Below, one piece after another: positions 1,728-56,367 of a stretch of DNA of 64,000 bases. The stretch is from assembly GCA_005888745.1 (NCBI GenBank), contig VBBS01000030.1, positions 140,175-204,174 of the forward strand. The letters are read 5' to 3'. How positions within the stretch are numbered: the stretch's first letter is position 1; every line of letters begins with the position of its first letter. Below the pieces are notes generated by a model, which was not told where the DNA came from, did no database searches, and saw only the letters and a program-made list of their open reading frames with translations. The position numbers were made by a program, and so were the translations under genes. Source of the stretch: Candidatus Bathyarchaeota archaeon (GTDB lineage: Archaea; Thermoproteota; Bathyarchaeia; 40CM-2-53-6).

Positions 1728-4700
1728 ATGTCGGACAAACGTTTTGTCCAAGGGTCCGGTATCAACGCTTTCAACGGAAATGAGCTGATAGTAAAGGGAG
1801 CGCTTGAGAGCAAGGTCGGCTTGATGGCCGGCTATCCTGGATCGCCTGTCGCAGAAGTTTTCACGATTCTAGAAGAGAACGCTGAGATTCTCAGAGAATG
1901 CGGCTTATGGGGAGAAATGACCAACGACGAGTCCCAAGGGGCTGCTGCGCTCAACGGCGCGTTGGATGTCGGCGTCAATGCGGTTGCTGTGATGAAGAGC
2001 GTCGGCCTCAACGTTGCTGCCGACCCTATCAATATCATCAATTATGCTGACAAGCTAGGCTTGAGCGGAAAGAGGGGCGGTGCCCTTGTTGTCTGCGGCG
2101 ACGACCCCCACGCTTCCAGTACGCAGGTTGCGGGTGATAGCCGCCAGCTTATGGAGCATCTCAAGATGGCGATTATCGAGCCGAGCACTCCGCAAGAGGT
2201 CAAGGACTGGATCGGAGAAGGACTCAGGCTCTCTCAGTACTCAAACCTGGTCGTAGGGTATCTCATTACCACTTACCTGGCCGAAGGCGGAGGTAGCGTT
2301 GTTCTATCAGAAAACCAGCCGTCGGAGATTACTTTCAAGAATCCGATTACCCTCGATATTTCAAAAGTTGATATCAAACGGAGAGTCAGTATCCCCCCGA
2401 ACACTTGGGATCTCGAGAAGGAGATTGTCAGAGATAGATTCCCGAAGGTCCATGAATATGTTCGCGATCATAAGCTCGACAAGATACTCTACGATGATGG
2501 TCGGAAGCACCGGATCGGATTCATCGCAGCCGGCATATCCTACAGCTATCTGGAACAGGCTCTCTGGGAACTCGGACTAGATGAACAATTTCCGATTCTG
2601 AAACCTGCCGTAACCTATCCACTTGAGCCCAACATCGTTGGCGAGTTATCAAAGAAAGCCGAGAATATTGTTGTTGTCGAAGAGAAGAGTCCAGCGATAG
2701 AGAACCAGGTCAAGACTATCCTCGATGACTTGGTCCAGGAAGGAAAACTCTCCAGCATGCCAAGGGTCTGGGGTAAATTCTTTCCTCAAGGCGATGGATT
2801 CCCGGAAGAGAGCGGCCTCACTCCTTCAAACCTAATCGAGAAAGTTGGAAACCTGCTCTTAGAGATCGGTGATCCTGCGGCCAAGATTGACCAGAAGAAG
2901 ATCCACAGCGAACTTGACCTGCTGGCTGAGATCAAAGCCTACGGGCTCCTGGTTCCTCCTCGCTCTCCAGGCTTCTGCGCCGGCTGCCCCCATCGGGAAA
3001 CCCTCAGCGCAGTTCATTCTCTAAGAGACACTCCTGAGCACAAAGACATCTTCGCGCACGGCGACATTGGATGCTATTCGATGTCTTTCCTTCCTCCCTT
3101 TGGTGAAATGCACAACCTAACGGCCATGGCGCTCGGTGGTGCTGCAGGAGCCGGGATGGACCCGTTCGTGACGAACAAGCAGTACGCGCTGATGGGCGAC
3201 TCCACGTTTTTCTGGAGAGGAATGACTGCAATCTCCAACTCGATCAAAGAAGGACAGGACATACTCTATCTCATTCTCGACAACAAGAACACTGCGATGA
3301 CAGGCCACCAACCTACACCGGAGTCAGGTCACAACCTGATGGGCGACAAGACAACCCCTCAGGACATCGAGAGCATCGTACGCGCTATGGGTCAGGGCCA
3401 GATCTACGTGAAAAAGATGCCCCCGTCCAACCGAGAGAAGTACATGAAAGAACTGGACAAGGTCTTCGAAAAACCCGGCGTCAAGGTCATAATAGCCGAC
3501 AAAGAGTGCGGCATCACATTTCACAAGAGAAAACGGTCAGAAAGAAACAGGATCATTGAGAGACAGGGTTTCATCAAGAAAGAGACATTCATCAACATAT
3601 CACAAGAAGTCTGCGAGAACTGCCGTGAGTGCACAAAGAACACTGGCTGCCCAGGACTAACGATAATCAACACTGACTATGGCGAGAAGATTGGGATTGA
3701 CCAGTCTATCTGCGTGTCCGACACCTATTGCACCAAGGTCATGGCTTGCCCTTCATTCGAGAAGGTAATAGTTACAAGAAACAGACCACCGAAATCACGA
3801 GTCAAGAAGATCTCGCTCGAAAATATTCCGCAGCCTGCTCCACACCGATTCAACGATACTTGGAAGATCTTCATCAGCGGCGTTGGCGGCATGGGGGTAG
3901 GTGTAATGTCGTCAGTTCTTGCTCGAGCCGGAACCAGAGAAGGATACCATGTCCGGTTCAACGATAAGAAAGGACTCGCAATCAGAAACGGAGCAGTTTC
4001 AGCTCACGTACTGTACTCGAATGGAAAAGCCAAGATCTCAACCATCGTCCCCAACGGCAAGGCGGATCTCTTGATGGGCGTCGACATGCTTGAAGCGGAG
4101 AGAAGTCTCGTATACGCGAGCCAAGTTCACACCACTGCAGTTGTCAACACCACGGTGGTCCCGACCATCCCGATGCTGGCAGGGATGATGAATTACCCTC
4201 CAGATGCGGAGCAGAATATTCGAAGATACACTAACTCCGACGAATATTTCGGTGGAAGACTTAGCGAGATCTCCGAACTGTATTTCGGAAGCAAGCTGTT
4301 CACCAACATGATTCTCTTGGGCGCGGCTTTCCAGAAAGGACTGATACCCGTCAGCGAACAGAACCTTATCGATGCAATTATGGAAACCGTACCTCCAAGC
4401 CAGCGAACTAGAAACATGGAAGCTCTACGCCTCGGACGAAAAATGGCCATCGAACCGGAGCTTCTGGAATTCAGGAACATTGTCGCCGATGACCGCATCC
4501 TTACTCTGTTTGGTGCGAAGGAAAGCTACCAGTCCGTTCTTGACATGAAGGCTAAGCAGCTCTCCCATTCCTACTGGATGTTCTGGCGTGGAAAGACGGT
4601 CGCAGACGAATACAGACGACTCGTTGAGAGCACCGTTGCCACGATGAGGCTCGATGAGGATACCAACAGAGCGATTGCCAGAAGAGTGTACGACCTCATA

Positions 4701-5345
4701 ATGTGGGGAGAACTTCCCTACGCCGAGAAGTACGTGGACAGGATCCTCGAGGTGTTCAGGAACGATAGGGAGGACAATGGCTACGCTGCAACGAAGACAG
4801 CAATGCTGGACCTTCACAAGGTGATGGCGATCAAGGATGAGATCTACACACCTCATCTGTTGACTGACGGTGAGAAACTGGACCGGGACAAGATACGGTA
4901 CAATGTTGACGATGAGAACGGTGACAAGATAATGTACGAGCACATCAACCGGCCCGAGTTTGAGGTCTTCGGCAAACAAGTAAGGTTCGACCTGCCGCAG
5001 TGGCTTGCGCATAACTGGCTGATGAGGATCTTCAAACACATGAAATGGACCAGAACCATCCTCGACAGCTGGGGATGGCACAAGAAAGAACGCGCCTTCC
5101 GCGACTGGTACAAAGACGACGTCATAGGATTCTACCTCAAGACGGCATCAACAAACTACGATCTTGCTCTCAGAGCGTTAAGGGTCATAAACGATCCATA
5201 CAGACCCAATGAATTCGCTGTCACAGGTTTCAGAGAGGTCATCTATCCAAAGATGGACAAGGCAAGAAGAGAATTCGAAGAACTCGTAGAGCCGGGTCAG
5301 CAACTCCCAGTAATGCCATTGATCACGGCCTCATCCGAAATGTAG
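1728..5345 (+). CDS. iorAB: Indolepyruvate:ferredoxin oxidoreductase, fused alpha+beta form (about 1200 aa). The ORF is open from 1650; the start is probably the Met at 1728.
   Basis: N-terminal GYPGSPV pyruvate-oxidoreductase-type domain, TPP-binding GDIGCY region, and two CxxCxxCxxxCP ferredoxin-like cysteine clusters (CENCRECTKNTGCP; CVSDTYCTKVMACP). The C-terminal half resembles the IorB-like domain of the fused bacterial-type IOR family. Confidence 0.75.
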   Translation: MSDKRFVQGSGINAFNGNELIVKGALESKVGLMAGYPGSPVAEVFTILEENAEILRECGLWGEMTNDESQGAAALNGALDVGVNAVAVMKSVGLNVAADPINIINYADKLGLSGKRGGALVVCGDDPHASSTQVAGDSRQLMEHLKMAIIEPSTPQEVKDWIGEGLRLSQYSNLVVGYLITTYLAEGGGSVVLSENQPSEITFKNPITLDISKVDIKRRVSIPPNTWDLEKEIVRDRFPKVHEYVRDHKLDKILYDDGRKHRIGFIAAGISYSYLEQALWELGLDEQFPILKPAVTYPLEPNIVGELSKKAENIVVVEEKSPAIENQVKTILDDLVQEGKLSSMPRVWGKFFPQGDGFPEESGLTPSNLIEKVGNLLLEIGDPAAKIDQKKIHSELDLLAEIKAYGLLVPPRSPGFCAGCPHRETLSAVHSLRDTPEHKDIFAHGDIGCYSMSFLPPFGEMHNLTAMALGGAAGAGMDPFVTNKQYALMGDSTFFWRGMTAISNSIKEGQDILYLILDNKNTAMTGHQPTPESGHNLMGDKTTPQDIESIVRAMGQGQIYVKKMPPSNREKYMKELDKVFEKPGVKVIIADKECGITFHKRKRSERNRIIERQGFIKKETFINISQEVCENCRECTKNTGCPGLTIINTDYGEKIGIDQSICVSDTYCTKVMACPSFEKVIVTRNRPPKSRVKKISLENIPQPAPHRFNDTWKIFISGVGGMGVGVMSSVLARAGTREGYHVRFNDKKGLAIRNGAVSAHVLYSNGKAKISTIVPNGKADLLMGVDMLEAERSLVYASQVHTTAVVNTTVVPTIPMLAGMMNYPPDAEQNIRRYTNSDEYFGGRLSEISELYFGSKLFTNMILLGAAFQKGLIPVSEQNLIDAIMETVPPSQRTRNMEALRLGRKMAIEPELLEFRNIVADDRILTLFGAKESYQSVLDMKAKQLSHSYWMFWRGKTVADEYRRLVESTVATMRLDEDTNRAIARRVYDLIMWGELPYAEKYVDRILEVFRNDREDNGYAATKTAMLDLHKVMAIKDEIYTPHLLTDGEKLDRDKIRYNVDDENGDKIMYEHINRPEFEVFGKQVRFDLPQWLAHNWLMRIFKHMKWTRTILDSWGWHKKERAFRDWYKDDVIGFYLKTASTNYDLALRALRVINDPYRPNEFAVTGFREVIYPKMDKARREFEELVEPGQQLPVMPLITASSEM

Positions 5346-14008: not shown

Positions 14009-17000
14009 CTATTTCGCCTTGACGGCGGGCGCCTTTAGGCTCTGGAACTCTTGGTCGAGGCGCTCGTTCAAAGATTGGGAGTAGTCAGTGAACTTTTCCG
14101 CAGCAGTGAGTCTCATGCGGCTGATATCGTTCTTGACCGGCAGCTCGAGAACTTTCTGGAGTTGGATGTTTTCGTCGACTGCTTTCTGCATCAGGTTGTA
14201 GTAGTGGAGGATTGTACGTATCATATTGTAGGTCTTCGTCTTGTCGCAGTAACTGTCGGCGGGGTTGTAGGATTGCTGCATTAGGAAGTCTTCCTTGATC
14301 ATCTTCGCAGCTTCCAAGATAACCCGTTGTCCCTCAGACAGGGCGTCAGGACCGACGAGCATGACGATCTCGCGAAGCTCCTCATCGCGCTGGAGAAGAT
14401 ACATTGCTACTTTCCGCAAATCAACCCATTCTGGTCCAACTTCTTTCGGATACCAAGTCTCGAGAGTGTCCAGATAGAGAGAATAGCTCGTCAGCCAATT
14501 GATGGCGGGGAAGTGGCGTCTCTTGGCAAGCTCGGAGTCGAGAGCCCAGAAGACCTTGACTATCCGGAGGGTGTTCTGGGTTATTGGCTCTGAGAAGTCT
14601 CCCCCAGGCGGAGAAACAGCGCCGATGACACTGATCGAGCCTTGCTTGGATTCAGATCCCAGGACCTCTAGTCGTCCCGATCTTTCGTAAAAGTCGGCGA
14701 GGCGGGATGCAAGATATGCTGGGTAGCCTTCTTCACCAGGCATCTCCTCTAGACGACCGGATATCTCTCTGAGGGCTTCTGCCCATCTGCTTGTAGAATC
14801 TGCCATCAACGCGGTGTCGTAGCCCATGTCGCGGAAGTATTCTGCGATCGTGATACCTGTGTAGACGCTTGCTTCCCGAGCGGCGATGGGCATGTTCGAA
14901 GTGTTTGCGACTAGTGTCGTTCGGTTCATGAGCGGTTGTCCAGTGCGAGGATCGAGAAGTGTCGGGAATGTTTCAAGAACTTCCGCCATCTCATTTCCTC
15001 TCTCACCACAGCCAACATAAACGATGACTTGCGCGTCGGCGAATTTTGCCAAAGCCTGCTGGAGGACTGTATTGTGGCAGACCATAGGTCCCCATCCAGC
15101 GATGAAATTCTCGTAACCTGGGACCGTGATGTCGTAGACTTCAGAGCTGGTAGTGATTTGTCGGATTTCGGAAATCTCGTCGAAGAAAGAAAAGTCGGAT
15201 AATTCTGAGAGTTTCTCGAGCTTCTTCAGCGCTGTATTTTCGTTCGCGCCTGGCGCGGATTTGTCTTTGATTGCAGATATGAGGCGTCTGATTACTGTAA
15301 TGCCCGGTTTCTCTCCATGCGTTGTGTAGTTGTACATGTTGAAGCCAGATTTTCTCAGGCTCTTTCTTGATGTTTTACCAAGAGCTGCGGCCTCCGAAAG
15401 GACTGATGGGTCGATGGGGATGACGTCGACGTTGCTGTATCCTCGCTTGTCAAGCTTCAGGAAATGATCTATCTTCCTTAGGTATGGATACGGTCGTTGT
15501 TTCGGCAGAAATTGGTATAATTCGGAGATTGGTCGGCGTCCCTCAATACTCATGCGATGGTACGTGTGACCGCCGACTTCGCTGTGCCTTATTCTATGCA
15601 GCACTCCCAACCTTGTCAGCAGATAGGAAATTCCGAGGGCCATCTCCTCACTTGCAGTGGAGATCTCTAGAGTACCTTTGCTGAAGGATCCATCGCCGGC
15701 GATGTACCCTGCGAAGAATCCTCCGATCACCTTGTCCGGGGACATTGAGACAAGGTCCGGAACCCCTAGTGTGCGAGATTTCTTCTTCTTGGGGAACCCG
15801 ATACCGACCAGTAGATGGACCAGCGCTCTGCTGTCGATTTGAGCCAACAATCCTCCACTGTGCGTCCCGCGACGAGGGGTCAAACCAAACAGGTCGTTCG
15901 CTAGCCGGGAGAATCTGCGGAGTACCTGCTTGTCATTATTGAACAGGATAACCCTTCCCCGTCCTCGAAGCATGCCGTCAGAGAGGATTAGTCCGAGAAA
16001 CTCTGCCAGTTCCAGCGTCATTTCCTTGGGGAGTTTTATGCTCCAGCCTTGTCGCTGAGCTCTGACGGACCCAACCGGAATCTTCTTACCTGTGGCCTTT
16101 GCAAGGCGCCTCAAGAAGCCGAGAGTGGGCCTCGCCCTTCTTCTCCAACAGTTCAGGAGACTCTTGTAGCTCACATCGAGGTTCCTCGCAAGGACTTTGA
16201 GGGCCATATCCGCTGTCAGGCTCTCTATGGTTGCGACCATCATCCTGATGGCTTTGGGATCGTCGACTCTGGTGTCGTCAGGTAGGAGTTTGTAAGGGTC
16301 GATCGGTTTCTGATCTAGACTGAGTGCGATCTTTCTTGGTGTTAGAAGGTATGCTCCGGGCCGGAGTAGTTTGGCAGAGGTCTCTTCTATTGTGCCGTCG
16401 CGGCGTAGTTGCTGGAGCTTGTGAACAGGGGTGACCCTTACCCTGCGCCCGCTGCGGGTCTGAATTTCGAGCAGTTCATTGGTGGACCCTTTGTAGCCCA
16501 TTGAGGCCTCGGCCTTTGTGAACTCGGGGTTGGATAGGGATACAACTCTAGGAGGGTTGGAATAAGAATAGAGAGTCTCATCTCCGTTGTCATCGAAGGC
16601 CTGCGAATTCCCATTATCTCGCACAAGCTCTCGGATTCTCCTTATCCTGCCATCAGCAAGCAGGACGGGAGTCTCTCCGTCCATGCACTTTCCACTTCCG
16701 AACGGTCCGGGAACGGCTGCTGTTCCGCCTTTGGCGACGGGGAAGAAGAAGTCGATGATGCGTTGGCCAGTTATGAGTGGGATTTCGGACGGGAGCTTGC
16801 GTTTGAAGGGCCTGGCGATTCGTACGGGCCAGGTGTGCATCATGAACAATGAGACGGGTCCCGTCTTGGTCTCCAGTTCACCGATCGGCTCGGTGATCGT
16901 ATAGTCGCCTTCTGGGACGATTGAGATGATCTTTCCGGACTGGTTTGGCGGGACCATTATCCGCTGCGTGATCAGGGTTGTCTCTTTGACAGTCCCTAGA

Positions 17001-17410
17001 ACATCACCACCGGAAACCTCTACTCCTCTATCCGCGGTTGGTACGAAGTGCCACTTTTTTGATCGGTCGATCGCGGCAGGGGCAAGGCCTCTTTTGATGA
17101 AGGGTCCAGTCTTTTCAAAAAGAACTGTTAGTGGGCGTTGGATCCCGTCATAGATCTGGCCTAGGATCCCGGGTCCGAGCTCGACGGACAGTGGTTTGCC
17201 TGTGCGTTCTACTTTTTCGCCGGGTCGGAGGCCGGCGGTTTCCTCGTAGACTTGGACTGTGGCGTTTTCGCCGTCTATCTTGATGATCTCGCCGATGAGG
17301 CCTAGGTCGCCGACGCGGACGACTTCGTGCATTTGGGCGCCTAGCATTCCTTCGGCGACAATGACGGGGCCCGCGACCCGTGCGACTTTTCCAGGCTTGA
17401 AGTCAGGCAT
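14009..17410 (-). CDS. atpA: A/V-type ATP synthase catalytic subunit A interrupted by an intein (1133 aa precursor; 594 aa of extein).
   Basis: The P-loop GPFGSGK is followed directly by the intein. The extein resumes [29 protein letters not shown]- and C-terminal domains are typical of subunit A. Confidence 0.9.
15071..16687 (-). other. Intein in atpA (539 aa) inserted in the P-loop at the classical VMA/AtpA-a site, with a LAGLIDADG endonuclease. The N-terminal boundary is good to within 1-2 nt.
   Basis: [13 protein letters not shown] (block A, Cys1). TPVHKL (block B). [14 protein letters not shown] and [21 protein letters not shown] motifs. Ends WGPMVCHN / TVLQQ. The C-terminal junction was checked against the DNA. 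Confidence 0.8.
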
Positions 17411-17525: not shown

Positions 17526-18158
17526 TTGTTATCGCATCCTTTCCCTTCAAAGAGTGATTGTGAATTGTTTAGAGGAGTAGCATCGAGAACCCCACTGTCC
17601 AGCTTCAAACGCCTCATACAGATCCTGGTAATTGGATCTGATGGTGATCATTGTCCCGAGAGCACCTATGCGGCGGCAAAGGAGGTCGGTGCAGAGATAG
17701 CTTCTAGGGGAGCTGTTCTAGTTACAGGGGGCCTTGGTGGAGTCATGGAGGCTGCTTGCAGAGGGGCGAAAGAGAAGGGCGGAATGGTCGTGGGAATTCT
17801 CCCGCAGGAAGACATGAGCTACGCGAACCCCTATTGTGATATCATCGTCCCAACAGGAATGGGATTCTCACGGAACTACGTGACAGCATACTCTGCTGAC
17901 TCTGCGATCGTGGTCGGTGGAGGAGCGGGAACCTACGTGGAAGCACTGGTCGCCTACCAAAAAGGAAAACCAATAGTCGCCCTGAAGGGAACGGGTGGAA
18001 CGGCGGACAAGATCGCGGACAGCTACCTTGACGATCGGAAAACAGTGAAAGTCATGGCCGCCCCAACACCCAAAGACGCCGTGGACCAAGCACTAGACCA
18101 CGCCCTCAACGGCAAAAGAGGCATCCGCTACTTTCAAAGCGTAGCAAAGATGCTGTGA
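17526..18158 (+). CDS. LOG/TIGR00725-family Rossmann-fold nucleotide-binding protein (SLOG superfamily)
   Basis: GGLGGVMEAACRGAKEKGGMVVGILP and PTGMGFS...VVGGGAGT motifs are typical of the TIGR00725/LOG family. Confidence 0.55.
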   Translation: MLSHPFPSKSDCELFRGVASRTPLSSFKRLIQILVIGSDGDHCPESTYAAAKEVGAEIASRGAVLVTGGLGGVMEAACRGAKEKGGMVVGILPQEDMSYANPYCDIIVPTGMGFSRNYVTAYSADSAIVVGGGAGTYVEALVAYQKGKPIVALKGTGGTADKIADSYLDDRKTVKVMAAPTPKDAVDQALDHALNGKRGIRYFQSVAKML

Positions 18159-18351
18159 CTATCCTAAGCTCTTAGACAAATCATGACATCTAAGCCTTCG
18201 AATCAGAGGAAGCTCTGAAGGTCATCGCCTCCCTGCCCCAATGACACCCTAGACCAAGCATTAGACCGTACCCTCAAATGGCAAAAGAGGAATACGATAC
18301 TTCGGTTCTGTAAACTCTTCGGTTGCTTTTTTTGGGTGATAGCTTCGGCCA

Positions 18352-18701
18352 CCTCTAACTGTAATGTTCAAGGAACGCCTGATTATTACATTAGGCGGTC
18401 GTCGTATGAGCCTGTCACACTGGGATGAGGGGAGTGACTCCGACCACGTGACAGGTCTAAATTTGGATGGCCGGTTCGCTGGCCACCGTAACATCCCTGC
18501 CTGGCAACGGGCCAAGCTACCACGCTATGGGCGTGAGGGGGCGGTTGAGGTTCGACCGTTCCCTGCCAAAAAGAGACTACTCGTCTCTGAGGCGCAAGGG
18601 CTCTCAGGTGAAGCAATGAACGGGAACTCGATGACGACGGTAATCCCCGGAGTCGATGAGAGCAAGCCAAGTCCTCGAGCAACCGAAGACTTGACAGAAC
18701 C
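18352..18701 (+). repeat. Copy 1 of a roughly 350-nt structured repeat, probably a non-coding RNA or MITE-like element. It runs from ctctaactgtaatgttcaagg to gacagaacc.
   Basis: Roughly 85% identical (estimated by eye) to the reverse complement of 48749..49098 over its full length, and to 24765..24843 over its 3-prime 80 nt. Differences cluster in hairpin loops or are compensatory, for example gagacTACTCgtctc versus gagacTATGTgtctc. Confidence 0.6.
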
Positions 18702-18828
18702 GAGAACGTTAACCAAGGGGGTGGGAGGGGGAGGCCCATGTCTGCCCTGAGTGGTTCCACGGGATTCCACGCGTGGAGCGGTGATAAGACCGGTCGATTT
18801 CTTCGATAAGATCATGATCTTGGTTTAG

Positions 18829-19371
18829 CTAGGCAGTCCGGGATCCCGATTGTGTGTCCAACCATCCAGCGATTTCTGACAGCTCCTTCTCCTGCTTTCG
18901 TATGCCCGGTAATTCATAGATTGTTGGGTTCAACCTCTCGAATATCTTGCTGAGGGATCGTGAAAGCAACAAGAACGCTCTGACCCATTCTTCGACCAAG
19001 ACATCTCCGACATACTCTGATTGCGGGTACCTAATTCCCTGAACGGGCCCGTAATGGCCGTCCACCTCAACAAATACTCTAAGGAAATTTCCTATCCGGT
19101 TGAGGCGAAAACCGAACCCAGTTCCGGTCAGCCAGTATCTGTATGTCCCCTCTGACTTGCTTGTGAGGTCGTGGATCAATCTGAGAGTCACCCGTATTTT
19201 CTCCTCTCTGAAGTGCATGATTACAGTGTTCTTTACACTATCCAGCCCAAGAGACCGGAACACGTTCTTTCCCTCGATCTTTACAACTAGAGTTGGCTCA
19301 AAGATGTCGTAGCCGTTTTCATGCTTGACTTCTTCGTTACTGATGCCAGAAAGAATGAACTCACAGGTCAT
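18829..19371 (-). CDS. Hypothetical protein
   Basis: 180-aa ORF with no recognisable motif. Confidence 0.35.
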   Translation of the reverse strand: MTCEFILSGISNEEVKHENGYDIFEPTLVVKIEGKNVFRSLGLDSVKNTVIMHFREEKIRVTLRLIHDLTSKSEGTYRYWLTGTGFGFRLNRIGNFLRVFVEVDGHYGPVQGIRYPQSEYVGDVLVEEWVRAFLLLSRSLSKIFERLNPTIYELPGIRKQEKELSEIAGWLDTQSGSRTA

Positions 19372-19417
19372 TGATAATCACTGAACGGCCATGAATCCTC
19401 CGGGGAAACATTTCGTA

Positions 19418-20440
19418 TCATGGCTCGCGTCGGGCGGCCTTCAATGCCCGAATGGCGTTTAGTGTTATCATTCTGTTGGGGCCTTTTCGTCCCCAGTCCA
19501 CGATCTCCACGTTGGACACGTTCATTTTCGTCTTGGTCGATGGTGTCCCTCTCATACTCCAGTAGTAGTCGTCTGCTTGCCACAGTCCGTCGGGACCCCT
19601 CTTCTTCTCAACAATATCCAGCGCTTCCTTGGTTCGTGGGTCGTCTAGTTTTCCTGCTCGTGAGAGTATCGTGAGTTCTTGTAGAATGTCGCAGTGCCAG
19701 TACAGTGGATAGTGGAGCTGAGTGAATAGGTGAACAACTCGAAATGTCTTTGAGTGAAATGTCTCCGGCTGGCGTTCTAGGCCTGTGCGACATGAGCGAA
19801 AGAGGCGGTGCTTGAGGAAAAACTCGGCAGCATTCCCTGCCGTTTTTAGAGCGTCTTTGTCGCCGGTAGCCCGGTAGTATTCGACTAGCCCCCACAATGT
19901 CGACAGGCTCTCATTGAACGAGGAATGATGCGCATCCTCACTCCTATCACAGTTCCATCCTCCATCAGGCCACTGCCACTCGGCCAACGACTCAGCAAGT
20001 TTCACAACCCGCGGATCCTCTGCGAGACCCAGCCGGCTGCACACAGCCAACGCGTTGCCCTCTTGAGACGCACACCTCCGATATAGTCCATTGATCTTGG
20101 GAACATTCCGAAGATGAGCCTCACCCAGCAACCATTTCAGAACTAGATTCGTCGCCTTTACCGCCGGCCGAAACCCCGGAGGGATTCCAAGTTCGACGAG
20201 AGATACCAAGCGCCAGTGTGCGCCTGTCCACTTCTGGTAAGGATGGACCCCGAAACCACCATCAGCCTGCTGTCCAGAGAGGAGAGTTTTCACAATTGGT
20301 CCGTTAGGAATTTGTTTCTTGGCTGCGAGAACTTCTTTCGCATCTGAAGGTATATCGAGAATATCGGTGAGAGTGAGATATCGGATCGACGGGTCATCAG
20401 ATTCCAGAAGCCAGTTGACTATGGGGTCTTTGACGCTCAT
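19418..20440 (-). CDS. Alpha/alpha-toroid protein with prenyltransferase/squalene-cyclase-like repeats
   Basis: Repeated Q..DGG(W/F) motifs (QQADGGFG, QWPDGGWN, PDGLWQ) and aromatic-rich helices. Confidence 0.35.
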   Translation of the reverse strand: MSVKDPIVNWLLESDDPSIRYLTLTDILDIPSDAKEVLAAKKQIPNGPIVKTLLSGQQADGGFGVHPYQKWTGAHWRLVSLVELGIPPGFRPAVKATNLVLKWLLGEAHLRNVPKINGLYRRCASQEGNALAVCSRLGLAEDPRVVKLAESLAEWQWPDGGWNCDRSEDAHHSSFNESLSTLWGLVEYYRATGDKDALKTAGNAAEFFLKHRLFRSCRTGLERQPETFHSKTFRVVHLFTQLHYPLYWHCDILQELTILSRAGKLDDPRTKEALDIVEKKRGPDGLWQADDYYWSMRGTPSTKTKMNVSNVEIVDWGRKGPNRMITLNAIRALKAARREP

Positions 20441-24663: not shown

Positions 24664-24764
24664 GGATGGATATCTATTGAATCGAACTTAAATGAACGCG
24701 ATTGATGGCTCAGTGAGATTTTCAAGGTCGTGACTTTGGCTCGAGCTCCCCTCGAGGTTGTCGG

Positions 24765-24843
24765 AACCCGACGACGGTAACCCATGGAGTCGATGAGAGC
24801 AAGTCAACTAACAACCGAAGAGTTGACAGAACCCTGAAATCCC
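24765..24843 (+). repeat. Partial (3-prime about 80 nt) copy 2 of the structured repeat
   Basis: aacccgacgacggtaacccatggagtcgatgagagcaagtcaactaacaaccgaagagttgacagaacc matches the 3-prime end of copy 1, with the caagtc...gacttg hairpin changed to tcaact...agttga. Confidence 0.45.
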
Positions 24844-24910: not shown

Positions 24911-26428
24911 GTGTCAAGCCGTGGTGGCGGGAGTAACATATTTCCTATAGAAACCGGGAGTGAATCCCTAGTAATCATGAATGTTCGCGGGCACGTCCGA
25001 CTCTTGTCTGTGCTCTTGGCAGGGTTAGCCGGTGCAGGTCTGCTCACGGTTGGCTTCGGACTAACACCTCTTAGCGGTTCTGTATTCGGTTCCATGCTCG
25101 GGCTCGGTCCCAAAGGAGACTTCTCAATGTCATCCAGCTCGAACCCCGTCGTCGTCCAGCAGGGGTACACAGGACCCGTTTCAATTACAATCGCCAGTCT
25201 GAATCATTTCAGCGGAGACATAGGCATGACTGCGACGATCACTACCAGCGCGAACGCTCCGATTGTGAAGGCGAGCGAGTCGTCTGTCAAGCTTACTCCC
25301 GATGATACCGTGTCTTTTTCGGTCTCTGTGGCAACAACAAGCTCCACAAATCTCGGGAACTACAACGTCACCGTTCGAGGAAAGACCGATGCGCTCTCTC
25401 ACTCGATAACAGTCTCCACGAGAATAATCTCACCGCCGCCACCTCCAACTCCGGACTTCGATCTCTCATCTAATCCGTTTGCGCTGACGACAACCCAGGG
25501 AGGGTTTCTGAGCGCAACACTGACAGTTTCGAGCATTCTCGGCTATTCAGGAAATGTGGCGTTGGCGGCAATCATCTATCCTTCGGGAGTCAACAGTCCC
25601 AGTGTTTTTCTGAACCTAACCTCCCTTCAATTGCTACCAGGAGGAACCAATTCTACGAACTACTTTGTCAACGCGTTTAACGCGACGGCTGGGAATTACG
25701 TAATCGCAATCACCGGAATCAGCGGTTCACTAAGCCACACTCTCCAAGTGTCTCTCTCAGTAAACCTTGTCAACGGCTACGAAGCGCTCAATCTGGAATT
25801 CTACGCGTTCAGCTCAGCTACAAACGCTACTCTCGATATTCGAAACTTTGGAAGCGTGACGAGCAGTCTCGTGGCATACTACGTCACAGATGCCAATTTT
25901 GACCAGTACTCTCTTACGACTTGGAGCGGTCCGGTCATCAGTCCAAACCAGCTGGGAATCGTAACGGTCCTGATCGGGGCAGGTTGCAGCGGATGCGTTC
26001 TATCCGGTTCAGCTTTCACCTTCACACCAGGCAACGATTACAGGATAACGCTGATTACAACTTACAACAATCAGTTCACATTCACGATAGGCCCGCCGAA
26101 TCCCAACCAGGAAGCTCTCTCGATTGACGCCTTCTCTTTCACCTCCAGCACGAACGTGACATTGTACATTCGGAACCTAGGAACGATCTCAGTCCAACTC
26201 GCCAGCTACTACGTGAGAGACGCGTCAGGCGACGCTTACGCACTTACATCATTCGCTGGGCCGACCATAGCTCCTAACAGCGTCGTGGCAGTGGCTGTTA
26301 CAATCGGGTCGAGCTGCCCCGGCTGCACGCTTACAGGCAACGCCTTCACGTTCGTCAATGGTAACAGCTACACGATAATCTTCGTGACCTCGCGGAACAA
26401 CCAGTTCTCCTTTACGGTGACAAAGTAA
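24911..26428 (+). CDS. Secreted Ser/Thr-rich cell-surface protein with an internal tandem domain repeat
   Basis: N-terminal signal/TM. Two homologous roughly 100-aa domains (YYVTDANFDQYSLTTWSGP...GCSGC... and YYVRDASGDAYALTSFAGP...SCPGC...). Confidence 0.55.
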   Translation: MSSRGGGSNIFPIETGSESLVIMNVRGHVRLLSVLLAGLAGAGLLTVGFGLTPLSGSVFGSMLGLGPKGDFSMSSSSNPVVVQQGYTGPVSITIASLNHFSGDIGMTATITTSANAPIVKASESSVKLTPDDTVSFSVSVATTSSTNLGNYNVTVRGKTDALSHSITVSTRIISPPPPPTPDFDLSSNPFALTTTQGGFLSATLTVSSILGYSGNVALAAIIYPSGVNSPSVFLNLTSLQLLPGGTNSTNYFVNAFNATAGNYVIAITGISGSLSHTLQVSLSVNLVNGYEALNLEFYAFSSATNATLDIRNFGSVTSSLVAYYVTDANFDQYSLTTWSGPVISPNQLGIVTVLIGAGCSGCVLSGSAFTFTPGNDYRITLITTYNNQFTFTIGPPNPNQEALSIDAFSFTSSTNVTLYIRNLGTISVQLASYYVRDASGDAYALTSFAGPTIAPNSVVAVAVTIGSSCPGCTLTGNAFTFVNGNSYTIIFVTSRNNQFSFTVTK

Positions 26429-46988: not shown

Positions 46989-47022
46989 GCTCGAGCATTC
47001 GGATGTGAGATTTTGGAGCCCC

Positions 47023-47108
47023 GGATGGGGGTTGAACCCATGACCTACGGCTTTTTTGGCATTTACAAAGCCGTCGCTCTACCACTGAGCTACCGGGGCA
47101 GGCATGGA
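47023..47108 (-). tRNA. tRNA-Thr (anticodon TGT) with an 11-nt intron in the anticodon loop. CCA is encoded.
   Basis: GCCCCGG-TA-GCTCAGTGGTAGAGC-G-ACGGC-[TTTGTA + intron AATGCCAAAAA + A]-GCCGT-AGGTC-ATGGGTTCAACCCCCAT-CCGGGGC-T-CCA. Confidence 0.65.
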
Positions 47109-47156: not shown

Positions 47157-48418
47157 CTAAGACGGCGAGTTTGCGATGCGCATCCTGTTGGCCGCTCGGA
47201 CAAGCGCCTCTACTCCCGGCAGGCTCTGCCCGGACAAGAGGGAAAGCATTGCTCCGCCTGCGGTGCTGACATGGCTGAACTTTTCCTCTATGCCCTGTAT
47301 TGATGCCAGGCCGACCAGATGTCCTCCTCCTATGACGGTGTAACCATTGCTATCGACCATCGACTCGAGCAGTTGCCTTGTTCCCTTTTCAAACCCGTTT
47401 CTCTCAAACACTCCAAGAGGGCCGTTTGCAACTGTTGTGGCCGCTCCTCTTACGATCTTGGAATATTTCTCCAGTGTTATCGAGCCGATGTCAAGAGCCT
47501 CTTCTTCCATGGAGGGAGAGTTGACGGGTTGGTCGACCCTCCTACCTAGCGTATCCTCGTACGCTAAGTCCAAGGGGACTTCTATGTGATCCGCATACCT
47601 CTTCGTCAGATTTCTTGCTCGGTCTAGGAACTGGTTGAAGTCGTGGATTTCTTCTTCGTTAATCTTTGTTTTTACCTCCCGGGCTCGAAGGAAAAGTTTC
47701 GCCGGTACTCCTCCTAGCAAAACCTTGTCTGCTTTCCCTCGCGACAATATGTTTTCGATCACTGGGATCTTGTCTTCAACTTTAGATCCGCCGAGAGAGT
47801 AAACGCATGGTCTCTTTGGTTCTTCAAGGAGGGTTGAGACTGCGTCTAGTTCTTTCTCCATGAGGCGGCCAGCTGCGCTGGGCAATAGTTCCGACAGGCC
47901 TGCGATGGAGGGCTGAGACCTATGGGCTGTTGCAAAGGCGTCGTCAATGTAGAGATCGAAGAGCGGTGCCAGGCGTCTGACAAAATGCGTCTTGACCAGT
48001 TTTTCGCGTTTGTCGTCGATATTTTCCTCCGCGCAGAATCTCAGGTTGTCGAGAACAAGGATCTCACCAGGTTGGACCTTTGTTATTTTCTGGATGGCAT
48101 GAGGACCGATGACGTCATCTACGAACTTGATTTGTTGCGAGCAATATTGCGCGAGGAGACTTGAATGGGGTTCGAGCGATGTGAAGTCATCCTTTCCGGG
48201 TCTGCTTTGGTGAGAGCCGAGGGTGACACGTGCCTCGTCCAGCTCGGAGAGGGTTTTGGAGATTGCCTTTATCCGGGTATCATCTAGAATCTGGTGTGTC
48301 GAGGGATCTAGGGGAACGTTGATGTCAACTCTGAGAAAGACCCTTTTGTCTCGCGTCTCTACATCGTCAAGCGTTAGAAAATCGTATTTTTTCAGATGAG
48401 GATCCTCTCGCCGACATC
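47157..48418 (-). CDS. pgk: Phosphoglycerate kinase. The frame is broken in codon about 11 by a run of six A (6 T on the plus strand at 48388..48393). The ATG at 48416..48418 restores MSARGSSSEKYDFLTLDDVETRDKRVFLRVDINVPLD if one A is removed.
   Basis: Continuous PGK homology: N-terminus RVDINVPLD...ILDDTRIKA, C-terminus GGGHLVGLASIQGIEEKF...GGAMLSLLSGQSLPGVEAL. The ORF-track entry 47157..47885 is only the part downstream of the first in-frame TTG. Confidence 0.75.
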
Positions 48419-48748
48419 AAGGCCGGGTTTAGGGTCTTGTTTAATGATTTGTCAGAAATTCCCAACCGGTTCAAATCCGTGATCTTACTGGCTTAGATAA
48501 GATAACTCCTTTGTCTCCATCTCATGCCTGCTCTGAAGCCAGTGAAGCAAAACTGTTTCCCTTCAGAAAGAAGCCCTAAGGCTTATTGTACATTCCGGAA
48601 AATGTCTAGTGAGAATCGGATGTGCATTTCAGAGACAAGAGTGTCGACATTACAAAACATCACCCAACACCAGCTTTGTCAAAACACTCTTAGATTCCTT
48701 GAATATCCACTGCGTAATGCGCTTCACCAGAGGGTATGGGGCAATAAC

Positions 48749-49098
48749 GGTTCTGTCAAATCCTCGGTTGCTCAAGGACTTGGCTTGCTCTCATCGACTC
48801 CGGGGATTACCGTCGTCGTCGGGTTCCCCTTCATTGCTTCACCCGAGAGCCCTTGCGCCATAGAGACACATAGTCTCTTCTTGGCAGGGAACGGTCGAAC
48901 CTCAACCGCCCCCTCACGCCCGTAGCGTGGTAGCTTGGCCCCTCGCCAGGCAAGGATTTTACAGTAGCCAACCAACCAGATATCCCGTTTCAGACCAGTC
49001 ACGTGGTCGGAGTCACTCCCCTCATCCCACTGTGACAAGCTCATACGACGACCGCCTAATCTGATAATCAGTCATTTCTTGAACATTACAATTAGAGA
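48749..49098 (-). repeat. Copy 3 (full length, inverted) of the roughly 350-nt structured repeat
   Basis: The reverse complement aligns end to end with 18352..18701 (roughly 85% identity by eye), with loop-localised and compensatory substitutions. Confidence 0.6.
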
Positions 49099-49155
49099 TG
49101 GACGAATCTATCACCAAACAACAAGCGAAGAGTTGAGTGTCGCGCAGACCAAGCC

Positions 49156-49419
49156 TTGAAGATTGACGTTTTCAATCCTGAAGCCAATACCTACAGAATG
49201 GAACTGCTGGAGAAGCTAGTCGCTGCGAGCGTTTACCCTCGGCGTTGGCCTAGTTGGCTCGAAGAAAAGGTGGATCGCCTCGGTCGATTAGGTCTAAATA
49301 AGAGAGAAATTTGCGAGCGCATTCTGAACAAAAACAACACTTACATCAAGATGCATGGGTTAGGCAGGAAGATACAGAACCGAAATGCGATGTTCAAATC
49401 ATGTATGAGGGTCGCATAG
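49156..49419 (+). CDS. Hypothetical small protein
   Basis: 87-aa ORF between the repeat and a tRNA. Weak. Confidence 0.25.
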   Translation: MKIDVFNPEANTYRMELLEKLVAASVYPRRWPSWLEEKVDRLGRLGLNKREICERILNKNNTYIKMHGLGRKIQNRNAMFKSCMRVA

Positions 49420-49429
49420 CTGAAGTAGT

Positions 49430-49562
49430 GCCGAGGGAGGGATTCGCACCCTCGATCTCCGGGAAGCTTTCTCTCTCCGGAATCCACCCTAGCCCAGGAT
49501 TATGAGTTTCACCCTCGCGGAGGGCGAGCCCGGCGCCTTAACTAGGCTAGGCCACCCCGGCG
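49430..49562 (-). tRNA. tRNA with a long (about 58 nt) intervening sequence between the anticodon-stem strands. The anticodon was not resolved (possibly xGC). No encoded CCA.
   Basis: Acceptor GCCGGGG/CCTCGGC (one G-U). D-arm GCCT-AGCCTAGTTA-AGGC. Anticodon stem CCGGG...CCCGG. T-arm GAGGG-TGCGAAT-CCCTC. Discriminator A. Confidence 0.45.
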
Positions 49563-52310: not shown

Positions 52311-55300
52311 CTAAAAAGGGAGGGCGGAGGCGTTGTCGCGCCTCTTGATGTATCCTTTCTTCCAGAACACTGCCAGCGTTCCTGCAATTCCTACTATTGC
52401 TGCCGATGTGATCGTTGCCTGTCCGTTGCCGCTACTTAGCCACGGTAGTCTGACTTCGAATGTTGCGACTGAAGCTGCGTCGAGTGGGCCTGACATGTGT
52501 GCCTTTGCTAGTACTGCATATGTTCCGATTAGCGCCTTGTCGGTGGAGAGGCTGAGGGTTGCCTTGTAGAGCCCGTTGGTCTGGGCTACGAGGACGAGGT
52601 TGGTGGTGGTGCCGTTAGGGTTGATGACGATGGCCGTCACCTGAGCGCTGGATGAGGTTACTGGGGCTCCGTTCAAGGTTGCTAGCACGTAGATCGCTAC
52701 TTTGTCCCCTGGGAAGTAGACTGATCCAACAGTCACGGTCGTTGCGAGGCCTCCTGATGCAGGTGCGGTTGTAACCCTGAAGTCTACGCTAGCTCTGCCG
52801 CCGAAGTACCGGTCCATTGCTTTGATCAAGTGCGGGCCGGGTTGTGATAGAGGCACGTCGAAGGTGAAGTTGAACGATCCATTCTTGGTGTTGGTGAAGC
52901 CGACAAACATGTCGTCGAAGGTGGACTATGATTTTTGTTCCCGGGCTACCGCTGGATGGGGTAACTGTTAGGGTTGGAGGGGGTAGAATGGTGACAGTTC
53001 CATCTGTCATGCTGTTGTCCGCCGGGGTTGGGTCCCCGGTGAGGAGCACTGTGGCGGAAATCGTGTAGTTGCCTGCCGCCAAGCCTAGCGTGTCCCAGGA
53101 GACACTGGCATATGCGTAGTAGGAGCAGCCTATGCAGTTGGGTGGGGGTGCCTGTACGAAGACCCCGTTGAGAGTTGCTACAGCCGCGGAGTTTGCGTAG
53201 ATCGTAACGCCGACCGTGTCGTTGAGGGTTCCAGTATTTGCAATGACGACTTGGATGCCAACGAACGCACTGGAGACCGCAATCTGCGGATAGGCTTGGA
53301 TGCTGACGATCGCGACGTCGTGCGGGGGCCTATTGAGTACATTTACCACGTGCGATGTAGTGCTGGAGAGGCCGCTGCTATCGATGACTGAGAGCGTGAC
53401 GGTATAGTTTCCGGAGGCGAAATATGTGTGGTACATTGTGGGATAGTTAGAAGAGTATGATCCTGATGAGTCTCCAAAGTTCCAGAAGAACTGGTTGATG
53501 AAACCGTCGGGGTCGGAGCTTGGGGAAGCGTCGAAGAAGACCTGCCCGCCAACTAGCGGATTCGCGGGTGTGAAGCTGAACTGGGCTACCGGATTCTCAT
53601 CGACTAGGGGTACGAGCACGAAACCGTCCTGTGTGGTCGACGGGATCAGTTGGCCAGCCCTATCGGCTAGTAGTGTATTGCTGAGGTGAAGATTGTATAG
53701 CCCGCTCTGGCTGGGCATGAGTGTTATGGCCGCTAGAACGCTGGTGCCATTTACCGTGGGTGCGCCGGCCAGTAGAGTGAATGCGACAGTTATCATTCCA
53801 TTCGAGATGGTTCTGGTTGATACGAAACCGGTGTTCGTGTTGAGGGCGTTCTGCCAGAACGTCCCGAGGACGATGCTCGCATTGAAGGTCTGGAATGCGG
53901 TGTTGTTATAGTTCAGGGTGAATTGCCAGCCGAATAGGTTGACAGCGTTGACTGCTTCAACGTTCACCGTGAAGCTTCCGCTCGCCACCGTCATGTTCTG
54001 GATTATTGGGGAGCTTGGGCTCATGTTGACGGCGACTAAAGCAGGACCCGAGACGGCTGGATGAACGGGTATTGTGCCAATAGTTGAATTGACGAGGTTT
54101 ACGTTGTCTGTAACGGTCAGTATTACGGTGTAGTTGCCTGGATTGGAGTATGAGTGGCTCGTCGTGGGTACAAAACCGTTGGTCGTCGATCCGTCGCCGA
54201 AAGCCCATAGCCAGTTTGTAATAACGCCGTCAGGGTCGAAGCTGGCTGAGCCTTCAAAACTGACGGGCTGACCGGCGGTTGGGTCTGCAGGAGTGAACGT
54301 GAATATGGCTATTGGCGCCCGGTCGCCGGTTAGACCTACGTTTACTCTGAGGAATGCATGACTTGGTTGAGCATTGATAATGATGTTGCCGAGCGAGTCC
54401 CTTGCTGAGCCTGTTGCTCCAAGATCGTCGGCGACTCTGAGGGTAACATTGTATGATCCGGCAGTGGTGTAGTTGTGGTTTAGGAGGGCGCCCGTGACTC
54501 CGAGATCTTGCGTGCCGTCTCCAAAGTCCCAGAAGTACCCGGCGGGATTAGCGATCGTGCCATCGCTGTCAGTGCTACCTTTGCCCTCAAAGACCACGTT
54601 GAAAGGTCCCGACCGGGTGTCGGGAGTCGCGATGAGCATGGCGCGAGGTGGATCATTCGTAATGGTTTCGCTCGCTCCAATTCCGGCCAAAACGCCTGGT
54701 ATGAGGGCGCCTGTACTGTCAACAAAAATCACGTTGGTTATACGGAACAACTGCGGGGCGCTCTGTTTTGTCAGTAGTTCGAAGTTGACATTTGCTAGAA
54801 TATTGTTCGTTGAGAGTGTGACTGTTGGGTTGGGCGCTAGTATTGTCAGGAAGACCGTGATTGATCCATTCGACCCGAAAGAGTTTACGGTGAAAGAGCC
54901 GAACGCTTTGTTGCCCGCGATCAACCCGGCCCAGTTCGCTGCCGCAGTGGTTGTCTGCGCACCGAAGAGTACACCGTTAGCCGATCCGTCGGGATATGTG
55001 GATGCGGCGCTAGGGTCGCCTTGAGGGATGAACGCTGTTGCATTGTAGTTTATCGTGAATTGCCATCCATCAAGGTTTGAGATCGGGTTCGAGGCGCTCG
55101 CGTTTACAACTGCGCCGACCCTGAAGCTTTTCGCGTCCGAGGCGGAGGACGTTACTAAGACGTCGGTCTGGGTGAGGCTTGCAGCATCTAGGTCAACGAC
55201 GTGGACTGCGGCGGCATGAGCAGGTCTTACTCCAGTCGATGTGAGTCCGGTTAGAAGTACAGCTAGAAGGAGGAATGTTGAGAGCAATTTGCTCATTTCT

Positions 55301-55804: not shown

Positions 55805-56260
55805 CGACGGCGAATCGCGCAGGTCCGTTCGTGAGGACTCTGCGTACTTTGCCAGCCAAAGCAAATTACACCTAAGGGAGAGACCCTGCACGTCTGAGTT
55901 TTCCGGAGTCTAGCTTGAGAATGATAAATCCAAAGGAGCCATCTGTGTGGAGACAGCTATGGATTCAGATCGCCATAATGGTTCCGCTTCTCACTGATGC
56001 TCTCGCGTTGATTACGCTTACCCTCGTCCACAACTTTATTCATGACCGGATTGATATCGATTTGGTTGGGCCTGCACGCACGGAGATCTCGTCACCCAGG
56101 GGAGCTTATTCGTACTATTCGGGGACCACGGACATTGCAGGTCGACCAGGCGTCTCGTTCGGAACTTTTTCCATTTTCCCGATTTGCATCAGAAATCATT
56201 GCGGTCGCGATCACAATGCTGTTCCCATAAGATCATCGATACTCAATAAAATAGAATTTG

Positions 56261-56367
56261 TGGAGCCCCGGACGAGATTTGAACTCGTGACCTTTGCCTT
56301 TTTGAGGAGTCTACCAAGGCAACGCTCTTGGCTGGTTGTGGTATCTACCAGGCTGAGCCACCGGGGC
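56261..56367 (-). tRNA. tRNA-Thr (anticodon GGT) with two intervening sequences: about 12 nt in the anticodon loop and about 18 nt in the D-arm. CCA is encoded.
   Basis: GCCCCGG-TG-GCTC-AGCCTGGTA[GATACCACAACCAGCCAA]GAGC-G-TTGCC-[TTGGTA + GACTCCTCAAAA + A]-GGCAA-AGGTC-ACGAGTTCAAATCTCGT-CCGGGGC-T-CCA. The acceptor and T-arm are nearly identical to the tRNA-Thr(TGT) at 47023. Confidence 0.55.

Follow-up and report, generated by a model that had tools for sequence, protein, structure and literature searches.

A gene-less archaeal inverted-repeat element that probably derives from a TnpB transposon and carries an omega-RNA-like scaffold

A stretch of 64,000 nt from Candidatus Bathyarchaeota archaeon (contig VBBS01000030.1 of assembly GCA_005888745.1, positions 140,175 to 204,174; hereafter the window) contains two full copies and one remnant of a repeat slightly shorter than 400 nt. 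The evidence presented here makes it likely, to a high degree, that this repeat is a non-autonomous transposon derived from an element encoding TnpB, an RNA-guided nuclease ancestral to Cas12, and that it bears the scaffold of a TnpB omega RNA. A preliminary description of the window, made from the sequence alone, had left the choice between a structured RNA and a non-autonomous mobile element. Target-site duplications, empty sites and covariation indicate that the repeat is both at once, the kind of RNA having gone unrecognised at that stage.

The two full copies, designated copy 1 and copy 2 (coordinates of all features in Table 1), lie in opposite orientation and had been estimated to be about 85% identical. 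Comparison by blastn gave 87.9% over 390 nt, and a repeat search of the window paired 18329-18702 with 48748-49121 as inverted arms of 374 nt, 89% complementary and separated by 30,045 nt. Both elements are located where they had been described but are larger, spanning 18304-18701 and 48749-49143. Copy 1 starts with GGTTCTGTAAACTCTTCGGT and finishes with ACCGAAGACTTGACAGAACC, which match as inverted ends with 2 mismatches in 14; its left end begins GGTTCTGT, the norm of its subfamily being GGCACTGT. The left repeat of copy 2, GCGACACTCAACTCTTCG, mismatches its right end at 7 of 16 positions. The partial copy described at 24765-24843, copy 3, is real but shorter: 24770-24833 aligns with copy 1 at 82.6% (blastn), and 24763-24833 matches the 344-nt element of a related locus (L048; fetched loci are designated by L numbers), with no likeness further upstream. 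Copy 3 retains the terminal hairpin and the end CAGAACC but, with the 5' strands of the main helices missing, is unable to form the scaffold. The 18-mer GGAGTCGATGAGAGCAAG occurs three times in the window, versus 0.07 expected. As the preliminary description had pointed out, all three copies terminate at GACAGAACC, beyond which the flanks are unrelated; this motif corresponds to the right end of a transposon and to the would-be start of a guide.

Relatives of the repeat are numerous. An exact scan for the 18-mer, with one genome per species, gave 43 stretches, of which about 25 are genuine and the remainder equals the expected chance count; the former come from soil Bathyarchaeota (BA_19, 21, 22 and 23), '13_1_40CM' archaea, and metagenome-assembled genomes (MAGs) of a Nitrososphaerales and a Nitrosotalea archaeon. 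A stricter pattern gave at least 120 stretches in JGI metagenomes, for at least 163 in both scans together, and at least 149 pattern matches were counted over the fetched loci and the window. More than 140 copies are thus present in public genomes and metagenomes, all of them from soil Bathyarchaeota or Nitrososphaerales, and copy 1 shows 80-89% end-to-end identity with about 40 elements on soil archaeal contigs. Complete copies measure 350-400 nt, hold no gene and are bounded by imperfect terminal inverted repeats, GGCACTGTCAAC...GTTGACAGAACC. With ends located by matching the last 16 nt against upstream sequence, the consensus was 5' GGCACTGTCAACTCTTCG ... CGAAGACTTGACAGAACC 3', or GGCTCTGTTAAC ... 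GTTAACAGAACC in a second subfamily.

Among 71 copies with recognisable inverted repeats, 23 are flanked by a perfect 8-bp direct repeat and 11 by one matching at 7 of 8 positions; the inverted ends of copies with duplications agree at 11-17 of 20 positions. Four unoccupied orthologous sites were found among the fetched loci, each with a single 8-mer, demonstrating that the 8-mer is a genuine target-site duplication. For instance, the empty site in L131 reads ...GAGTCTG TCAAACAA TCTCTACC, and L038 and L138 carry the element between two copies of TCAAACAA. The duplication for which the preliminary description had suggested looking is therefore found in the relatives; the window copies themselves lack it, and the flanks of copy 1 agree at 3 of 8 positions. 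Inverted repeats and duplication make the family structurally a miniature inverted-repeat transposable element (MITE): short, non-coding, multi-copy and with a fixed 8-bp duplication. Hammerhead ribozymes and group I and group II introns, considered as candidates, were dropped once duplications and empty sites appeared.

The same observations bear on whether the repeat could be a cellular gene for a structured RNA with two paralogous copies, for example a ribozyme, a regulator or a riboswitch-like leader. Strong folding and covariation, documented below, would fit such a gene, as would the location of copies 2 and 3 upstream of genes on the same strand. Copy 1, in contrast, points towards a gene that runs convergently. 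What renders this explanation exceedingly improbable is that the family numbers more than 140 copies, scattered over unrelated sites, and shows inverted repeats, 8-bp duplications, empty sites and homology to the 3' end of tnpB. Nor was any Rfam family recovered, in keeping with the preliminary description: at gathering score the window yielded only two tRNAs and left the repeat unmatched, and a search of 18200-18800 at E up to 10 gave a best match of E = 9 and no family assignment.

The parentage of the repeat came to light in a search for right ends lacking the 18-mer, which surfaced two loci, L086 and L106, where the same 3' module lies directly behind a reading frame containing CPRCG...LWCGNC...DRDxAAAVNLARRG. 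This frame, ending in ...CPRCGERLQSDKRLERKLWCGNCRIVMDRDRAAAVNLARRG, comprises the zinc ribbon and the RuvC-III motif of TnpB. The module was found inside and behind a TnpB frame in L164, L166, L167, L106, L086, L061 and L131, and the copy 1 scaffold shares homology with the terminal ~300 nt of the TnpB-only elements in L164, L166, L106 and L086. Searching with a composite of the L086 and L106 fragments brought up more than 1,555 proteins, about 400 amino acids long, all assigned to Pfam PF07282 and some named TnpB by NCBI. These TnpB relatives belong to Bathyarchaeota and 'Crenarchaeota 13_1' MAGs, and two of them (P0043 and P0019) have the catalytic D, E and D residues and both CxxC pairs intact.

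In these loci tnpB is the lone gene of elements of ~1.3 kb that share the MITE ends and the 8-bp duplication. The L166 element is preceded by ...GCTTA and the duplicated CGCGCTAC, begins GGTTCTGTTAACTTATTG, ends GAGTTAACAGAACC and is followed by CGCGCTAC again; L164 has the same layout, its duplication CTATGGTT following TTA, and L131 holds a frameshifted, pseudogenised element of 1302 nt whose duplication ACCTAATC also follows TTA. Only 7 nt separate the stop codon of tnpB from the end of the element, so that the last ~300 nt are both coding and the region where an omega RNA is expected. The small elements consist of exactly this ~300-nt region plus about 90 nt of the left end, and would have originated by internal deletion of a ~1.3-kb archaeal insertion sequence with tnpB as sole gene. 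Homology to the 3' end of tnpB marks the core of the repeat as a probable TnpB omega-RNA scaffold.

A coding gene had been discounted in the preliminary description, and the copies in the window are indeed non-coding, but the open reading frame (ORF) overlapping copy 1 is the decayed C-terminus of a TnpB: its residues 52-101 match residues 360-403 of P0043 with 50% identity (BLASTP, E = 1e-7). The corresponding frame in copy 2 is interrupted by stop codons, and a coding gene was accordingly rejected as an explanation of the repeat. Membership in a larger coding family, which the preliminary description would have held against its own proposal, applies to the origin of the repeat, the 3' end of tnpB, and not to the window copies, which no longer code.

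Conservation of the RNA was analyzed on 97 distinct 3' modules (~135-180 nt) from protein-less subfamilies, TnpB-linked elements and Nitrososphaerales copies, aligned by MAFFT. A structure of 40 pairs, drawn by hand from those same 97 sequences and located in the 3' 169 nt of copy 1 (18533-18701), was occupied by standard pairs in 93.5% of cells, versus 34-44% when the 3' partners were slid by 1-3 columns. Double-sided changes were seen at 21 pairs (14.3 ± 1.7 in shuffles) and compensatory changes in 228 cells (59.7 ± 8.4 in shuffles), and none of 500 shuffles equalled the observed covariation. The long helix reads GCUCUC/GAGAGC in protein-less copies and CGGAGC/GCUCCG in TnpB-linked ones, the terminal hairpin changes from CAAGUC/GACUUG to UAACUU/AAGUUA across subfamilies, and a further hairpin passes from GAGAC/GUCUC through GAAGC/GCUUC to GAGGC/GCCUC, covarying at all five pairs, in protein-less copies only. 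Two examples had been singled out beforehand from the window copies, and both were read correctly: gagacTACTCgtctc versus gagacTATGTgtctc is a change in a loop, and caagtc/gacttg versus tcaact/agttga is a compensatory change at pairs that also covary in the 97 relatives. The fold of the 3' ~170 nt is thus kept by compensatory substitutions, protein-less copies included. The window copies fold more stably than dinucleotide shuffles (z = -5.1 for copy 1 and -3.1 for copy 2). Structural support covers these ~170 nt of the ~300-nt scaffold; applied to the full 320-nt alignment, RNAalifold retrieved the most conserved helices and no others, a consequence of the misalignment of the variable 5' half by MAFFT.

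The sites of insertion follow a strict rule. In 37 non-redundant insertions with duplications matching at 7 or 8 of 8 positions, counted upstream from the left 8-mer, position -2 is invariably T, position -1 is always G (18) or A (19), and position -3 is T in 28, giving TTR in 28 of the 37. No mirror motif was present beyond the other side of these insertions, and the orientation of the element relative to the T-R motif is always the same. The motif is already there in empty sites and hence belongs to the target. The three TnpB-containing elements likewise obey the T-R rule. A Nitrososphaerales MAG (L013) carries two shorter relatives on the same strand, at 3541-3860 and 4382-4701, about 840 nt apart and each with an 8-bp duplication; these duplications are ATCAAACT after TTA and ATAAAGCT after TTG, so that both the family and its insertion rule reach beyond Bathyarchaeota.

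At the other side, every copy is conserved up to CAGAACC, and the flanks that follow bear no relation to one another. An empty site consists of TTR, 8-mer and flank, and a predicted RNA would consist of scaffold, 8-mer and flank; set against each other, these orders reproduce the geometry of TnpB, a target-adjacent motif (TAM) followed by a match to the guide. Judged by its position, T-R is a candidate TAM that TnpB may read. In an occupied site, by contrast, the left 8-mer is followed by the element, leaving a guide match of 8 nt only, and the right 8-mer is preceded by AACC instead of TTR.

This geometry suggests how the elements may persist. The retained region would be transcribed as an omega RNA of ~300 nt starting near GGCGGUCGUCG and running 16-20 nt past CAGAACC, with the 8-mer and the bases downstream of it as guide. 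A TnpB encoded elsewhere in the genome would load this RNA, and the complex would cut element-free alleles, in which TTR, 8-mer and flank supply TAM and full guide match; recombination with an occupied copy would then restore or spread the element. The occupied site would be spared, its left copy of the 8-mer offering an 8-nt match and its right copy standing behind AACC. From geometry and covariation, the odds appear roughly even that TnpB still employs the RNA in cutting empty sites, and use of RNA from the decayed copies of the window seems less likely. Second matches of the three putative window guides were searched for within the window and none was found.

The tips of the element themselves resemble its target. 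TTR occurs 8 nt inside both, as ...TT(G/A)ACAGAACC at the right tip and likewise on the other strand at the left. At 13 loci (e.g. L053 at 2840, L115 at 753, L128 at 11345, and L151) a duplicated right tip, CAGAACC followed by NCAGAACC, precedes the true duplication, as would result from insertion into the TTR+8 site of the right end itself and subsequent collapse of the tandem pair. A small array, ACAGAACC GCATAACC ACAGAACC GCATAACC ACAGAACC, is present on the minus strand of L084 at position 347.

Regarding the enzyme that moves the element, the ends begin with GGCACTGT and GGTTCTGT(T), which are the first 8-9 nt of the inverted repeats of IS26/IS15 and IS431, members of the IS6 family. The published repeats are GGCACTGTTGCAAA for IS15/IS26 and TGGTTCTGTTGCAAAGT for IS431mec, and these elements make 8-bp duplications, 8-bp flanks being quoted for IS15. 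The likeness is confined to the first 8-9 nt, the sequences diverging after position 9. IS6-like tips together with an 8-bp duplication make an IS6-type DDE enzyme acting in trans the best lead, and mobility is probably due to a transposase of this kind. A different origin of mobility was considered in view of the cargo: TnpB and omega RNA are hallmarks of IS200/IS605 elements, where protein-less omega-RNA carriers are known and insertion takes place, oriented, directly 3' of a short T-rich motif, as here. The repeat could on these grounds be a classical palindrome-associated transposable element (PATE), moved as single-stranded DNA by a Y1 TnpA; but inverted repeats and an 8-bp duplication, the latter verified by empty sites, are absent from IS200/IS605, and no Y1 gene was seen next to the TnpBs examined, so that a classical PATE is very unlikely. 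Solo ends, followed as a lead to a partner transposase, proved to be reverse complements of right ends, TnpB-linked copies or chance sites; the match in L097, for example, is a chance site in an aldo-keto reductase gene.

Several findings weigh against the interpretation of the repeat as a TnpB-derived transposon bearing an omega RNA, and some of them could equally be read as signs of a dead relic, i.e., of decaying deletion derivatives that were moved in trans, inherited the RNA-like conservation from their parent and make no functional RNA as protein-less copies. The window copies are old: copies 1 and 2 have diverged by 11%, their duplications and TTR context are lost, the left end of copy 2 is decayed, and copy 3 is a stump. 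No TnpB gene was found in the 64-kb window, which together with the age of the copies makes present activity doubtful. As to the RNA, drawing the structure by hand from the tested sequences inflates the contrast with its slid versions, and recent common origin, as opposed to selection, could be part of the reason why the 3' module is conserved. A long-range GUCGUCG/CGACGAC pairing near the 5' end of the scaffold showed no covariation; both strands being trinucleotide repeats, shifting the register by 3 left the pairing equally good.

Other features of the family speak against passive decay. The hairpin at columns 45-49/63-67 exists in protein-less copies only and shows compensatory changes at all five of its pairs; the terminal hairpin has undergone paired changes among protein-less subfamilies, with CG replaced by UA in 25 sequences; and the protein-less module has been kept from Bathyarchaeota to Nitrososphaerales and Nitrosotalea. 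In 45 distinct protein-less copies of ~390 nt, mean pairwise identity per site is 0.83 in the inverted repeat, drifts to 0.68-0.73 in the left-part interior and holds at 0.87-0.90 in the 3' 200 nt. Taking both sides into account, we regard a dead relic as unlikely, though less so than the other alternatives.

Further reservations concern mobility. Transposase genes are absent from the window, and none stands beside the TnpBs: four of them, in 12 places, have only host genes as neighbours. A tblastn search for an IS6-type transposase in about 1 Mb of related loci plus the window gave nothing below E = 2 with an IS26 transposase as query, a search that divergent archaeal homologues could escape. 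Pairs of inverted ends 0.5-4 kb apart with a duplication were limited, across the loci, to L131 and L166. Only TnpB-only elements were thus seen to share the MITE ends, and a partner with a transposase was not found in that ~1 Mb of loci, a weak test. Finally, IS6-family elements transpose replicatively through cointegrates, and neither an asymmetric motif at the target nor a TnpB as cargo is known to us from this family; an IS6 assignment therefore leaves the strictly oriented TTR unexplained.

Nor would a transpososome of the ordinary, symmetric type account for a motif that is strictly oriented and one-sided. Insertion might instead be coupled to recognition of the TAM, with TnpB, with or without omega RNA, helping to choose or process the target, or with its RuvC domain acting on the ends. 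We consider such a coupling rather improbable. It is allowed by three observations: no gene other than that for TnpB has ever turned up between these ends; each insertion takes its orientation from an asymmetric T-R that occupies the position of a TAM; and the TTR inside both tips mimics the target, the right end being a recurrent site of insertion. In its target-choice version, the coupling may be a minimal archaeal analogue of Cas12k-guided transposition.

The absence of a duplication around copy 1 finds an explanation in a short contig, L065, which is orthologous to the copy 1 locus on both sides. Its left flank, ...GAGGAATACGATACTTC, adjoins an oppositely oriented element at that element's right end, and some 840 nt beyond, the contig reads ...CCTTG followed by GAGAACGCTAACC, the unoccupied target (TTG and 8-mer) of copy 1. 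In the simplest history suggested by this comparison, copy 1 would have inserted at GAGAACGT behind TTG, and a later deletion would have joined the tip of the older element to the left tip of copy 1. Such a deletion would account for both the loss of the left duplication and the atypical GGTTCTGT start of copy 1, whose left end is consistent with a hybrid that includes the right end of the older inverted element, still present in L065. In the left flank of copy 1 stands a duplicate of the 3' end of a SLOG/LDcluster4 gene, 76% identical to the L065 stretch orthologous to window ~18046-18133, pointing to local rearrangement at the insertion site. Between the old inverted element and the empty target, L065 has an ORF resembling HNH endonucleases (~880-1250; ...CVNCGCDDERLLEINHIRGGG...) that is absent from the window. 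In L164 (1215-2856) the SLOG (LDcluster4) gene and the following gene of ~340 amino acids are adjacent; in the window (17526-20440) they are ~1.26 kb apart, the gap being filled by the 3'-end duplicate, copy 1 and an ORF of 180 amino acids without Pfam match.

This history also bears on the proposal, made in the preliminary description, that copies 1 and 2 could mediate inversion of the ~30-kb segment between them. Inverted repeats of 374 nt at 89% identity are in principle capable of acting as such a recombination switch, and recombination can cause the loss of matching flank duplications seen here. However, swapping the flanks restores no duplication (copy 1 left versus copy 2 right agree at 5 of 8 positions), the missing duplication of copy 1 is explained by the deletion between element ends that L065 suggests, and 11% divergence speaks against frequent exchange. 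The inversion is unsupported, and we rate a switch of this kind as highly unlikely.

Table 1. Repeat copies and associated features in the window (positions from the first nucleotide of the window)
Feature	Position	Strand	Basis or remark
Copy 1, complete protein-less element, 398 nt	18304..18701	+	Ends placed by inverted-repeat matching
Left terminal inverted repeat of copy 1	18304..18325	+	92% complementary to 18678-18703
Omega-RNA-like scaffold of copy 1	18394..18701	+	Homology to TnpB-only elements; 5' limit inferred, 3' limit exact
Putative guide flank of copy 1, GAGAACGTTAACCAAGGGGG	18702..18721	+	Conservation stops exactly at 18701
Relic frame of a TnpB C-terminus in copy 1, not a gene	18364..18750	+	BLASTP to P0043
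Duplicate of SLOG/LDcluster4 gene 3' end, left flank of copy 1	18216..18302	+	76% to L065 stretch orthologous to window ~18046-18133
Copy 2, full-length element, 395 nt, decayed left end	48749..49143	-	87.9% identical to copy 1 over 390 nt
Putative guide flank of copy 2, GTTATTGCCCCATACCCTCT	48729..48748	-	Homology ends at 48749
Copy 3, 3'-terminal remnant of ~70 nt, third subfamily	24763..24833	+	86.5% to last 71 nt of L048 element

Some other features of the window were recorded. A fourth GACAGAACC, at 61558, has no repeat attached; isolated GACAGAACC or GGTTCTGT tips without a repeat occur at 61558-61566, 49374-49381 (minus strand) and 25076-25083, and GGYTCTGT is found 10 times versus 5.1 expected, so that these tips may be chance matches or eroded solo ends. 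The guide flank of copy 2 lies ~350 nt upstream of a phosphoglycerate kinase gene on the same strand (47157-48420, minus), whose frame is open to ~48410, although ATG, GTG and TTG are all missing from it before 47885; an out-of-frame ATG at ~48417 could be joined to it through an A6 run (GAAAAAATAC, ~48392-48386), which suggests a homopolymer assembly error or a frameshift. On the strand of copy 2 and ~290 nt upstream of it, an intron-containing tRNA gene (49429-49561, minus) with a 62-nt insertion in the anticodon loop was detected by the Rfam tRNA model only and missed by ARAGORN. A tRNA-Tyr gene with a 13-nt intron is located at 47014-47099 (minus), and 46 nt at 56258-56303, unreported by Rfam and ARAGORN, are 78% identical to its 3' half (47011-47056) and may be another tRNA or a tRNA fragment. 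The catalytic subunit of an A-type ATP synthase (14009-17410, minus) contains an intein with a LAGLIDADG homing-endonuclease domain. This subunit and the intron-containing tRNAs mark the window as archaeal, and its nearest relatives in public data are MAGs of soil Bathyarchaeota. A 71-nt inverted repeat (54491-54561 and 63057-63127, 77%), unrelated to the element, has its first arm in a gene with PKD and cohesin domains.

When compared with known systems, the scaffold resembles the TnpB omega RNAs (reRNAs) of IS200/IS605 and IS607 in overlapping the 3' end of tnpB, in stopping at the right end of the transposon, in having a variable flank next to it as would-be guide, and in the short T-rich motif 5' of the guide match in the empty site, from which the end of the element, AACC, differs. 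It departs from known omega RNAs in being long (~300 nt), lacking an Rfam model and lying entirely within the TnpB reading frame. The carrier differs as well: IS200/IS605 and IS607 have neither inverted repeats nor target duplication, and the present family has inverted repeats and an 8-bp duplication. PATEs are protein-less derivatives of IS200/IS605 that often encode omega RNAs used in trans (Meers et al. 2023, a preprint; also a survey of Haloquadratum). As in PATEs, the present elements are non-autonomous and gene-less, with fused transposon ends and an omega RNA kept for a TnpB encoded elsewhere; unlike PATEs, which have subterminal palindromes and lack inverted repeats and duplication, they possess both and are MITEs by structure.

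Closer in architecture are the TnpBs linked to DDE transposases. Six DDE-associated branches (DDE-1 to DDE-6) with inverted terminal repeats were described by Altae-Tran et al. (2023), together with solo TnpBs that share the ends, and a 2026 review names ISL2, IS630 and IS1031 as DDE partners of TnpB. As in these elements, and in the eukaryotic Fanzors found within transposons with terminal inverted repeats, TnpB is located within 250 bp of a symmetric (inverted) end, and, as for the solo TnpBs sharing DDE ends, movement in trans by a DDE enzyme is presumed. The named partners ISL2, IS630 and IS1031 make duplications of 2-3 bp. From these the present family is set apart by its 8-bp duplication, its IS6-like ends and a partner transposase not found in the loci searched. 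With IS6 elements (IS26/IS15, IS431/IS257) and their MITEs it shares the first 8-9 nt (GGCACTGT, GGTTCTGTT) and the 8-bp duplication; the divergence of the inverted repeats past position 9, and a DDE_Tnp_IS240 transposase not found in the loci searched, distinguish it from them.

TnpB and its omega RNAs, PATEs with omega RNAs used in trans, and TnpB inside DDE-type transposons are thus already known. A search of the accessible literature returned no description of an element with IS6-like ends, an 8-bp duplication and TnpB as its only gene, of abundant MITE derivatives keeping a covarying ~300-nt omega-RNA scaffold, or of a strict, oriented T-R motif abutting the duplication. The natural role of TnpB is understood only for the scarless IS200/IS605 and IS607 elements, where the TAM is the target of the transposase. 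In the archaeal family reported here, the geometry of TAM and guide is found on a transposon that has inverted repeats, makes an 8-bp duplication and lacks a linked transposase; the family so provides a natural test of restorative homing with DDE-type elements, in which the duplication would supply the first 8 nt of the guide match. With many protein-less carriers, the omega RNA alone appears to be held under structural constraint. The large set of compact TnpBs (~400 amino acids), with a defined scaffold of ~300 nt and TTR as candidate TAM, is open to trial as a source of editing tools. Should the oriented T-R rule stem from a link of TnpB with integration, it would have implications for the origin of RNA-guided transposition.

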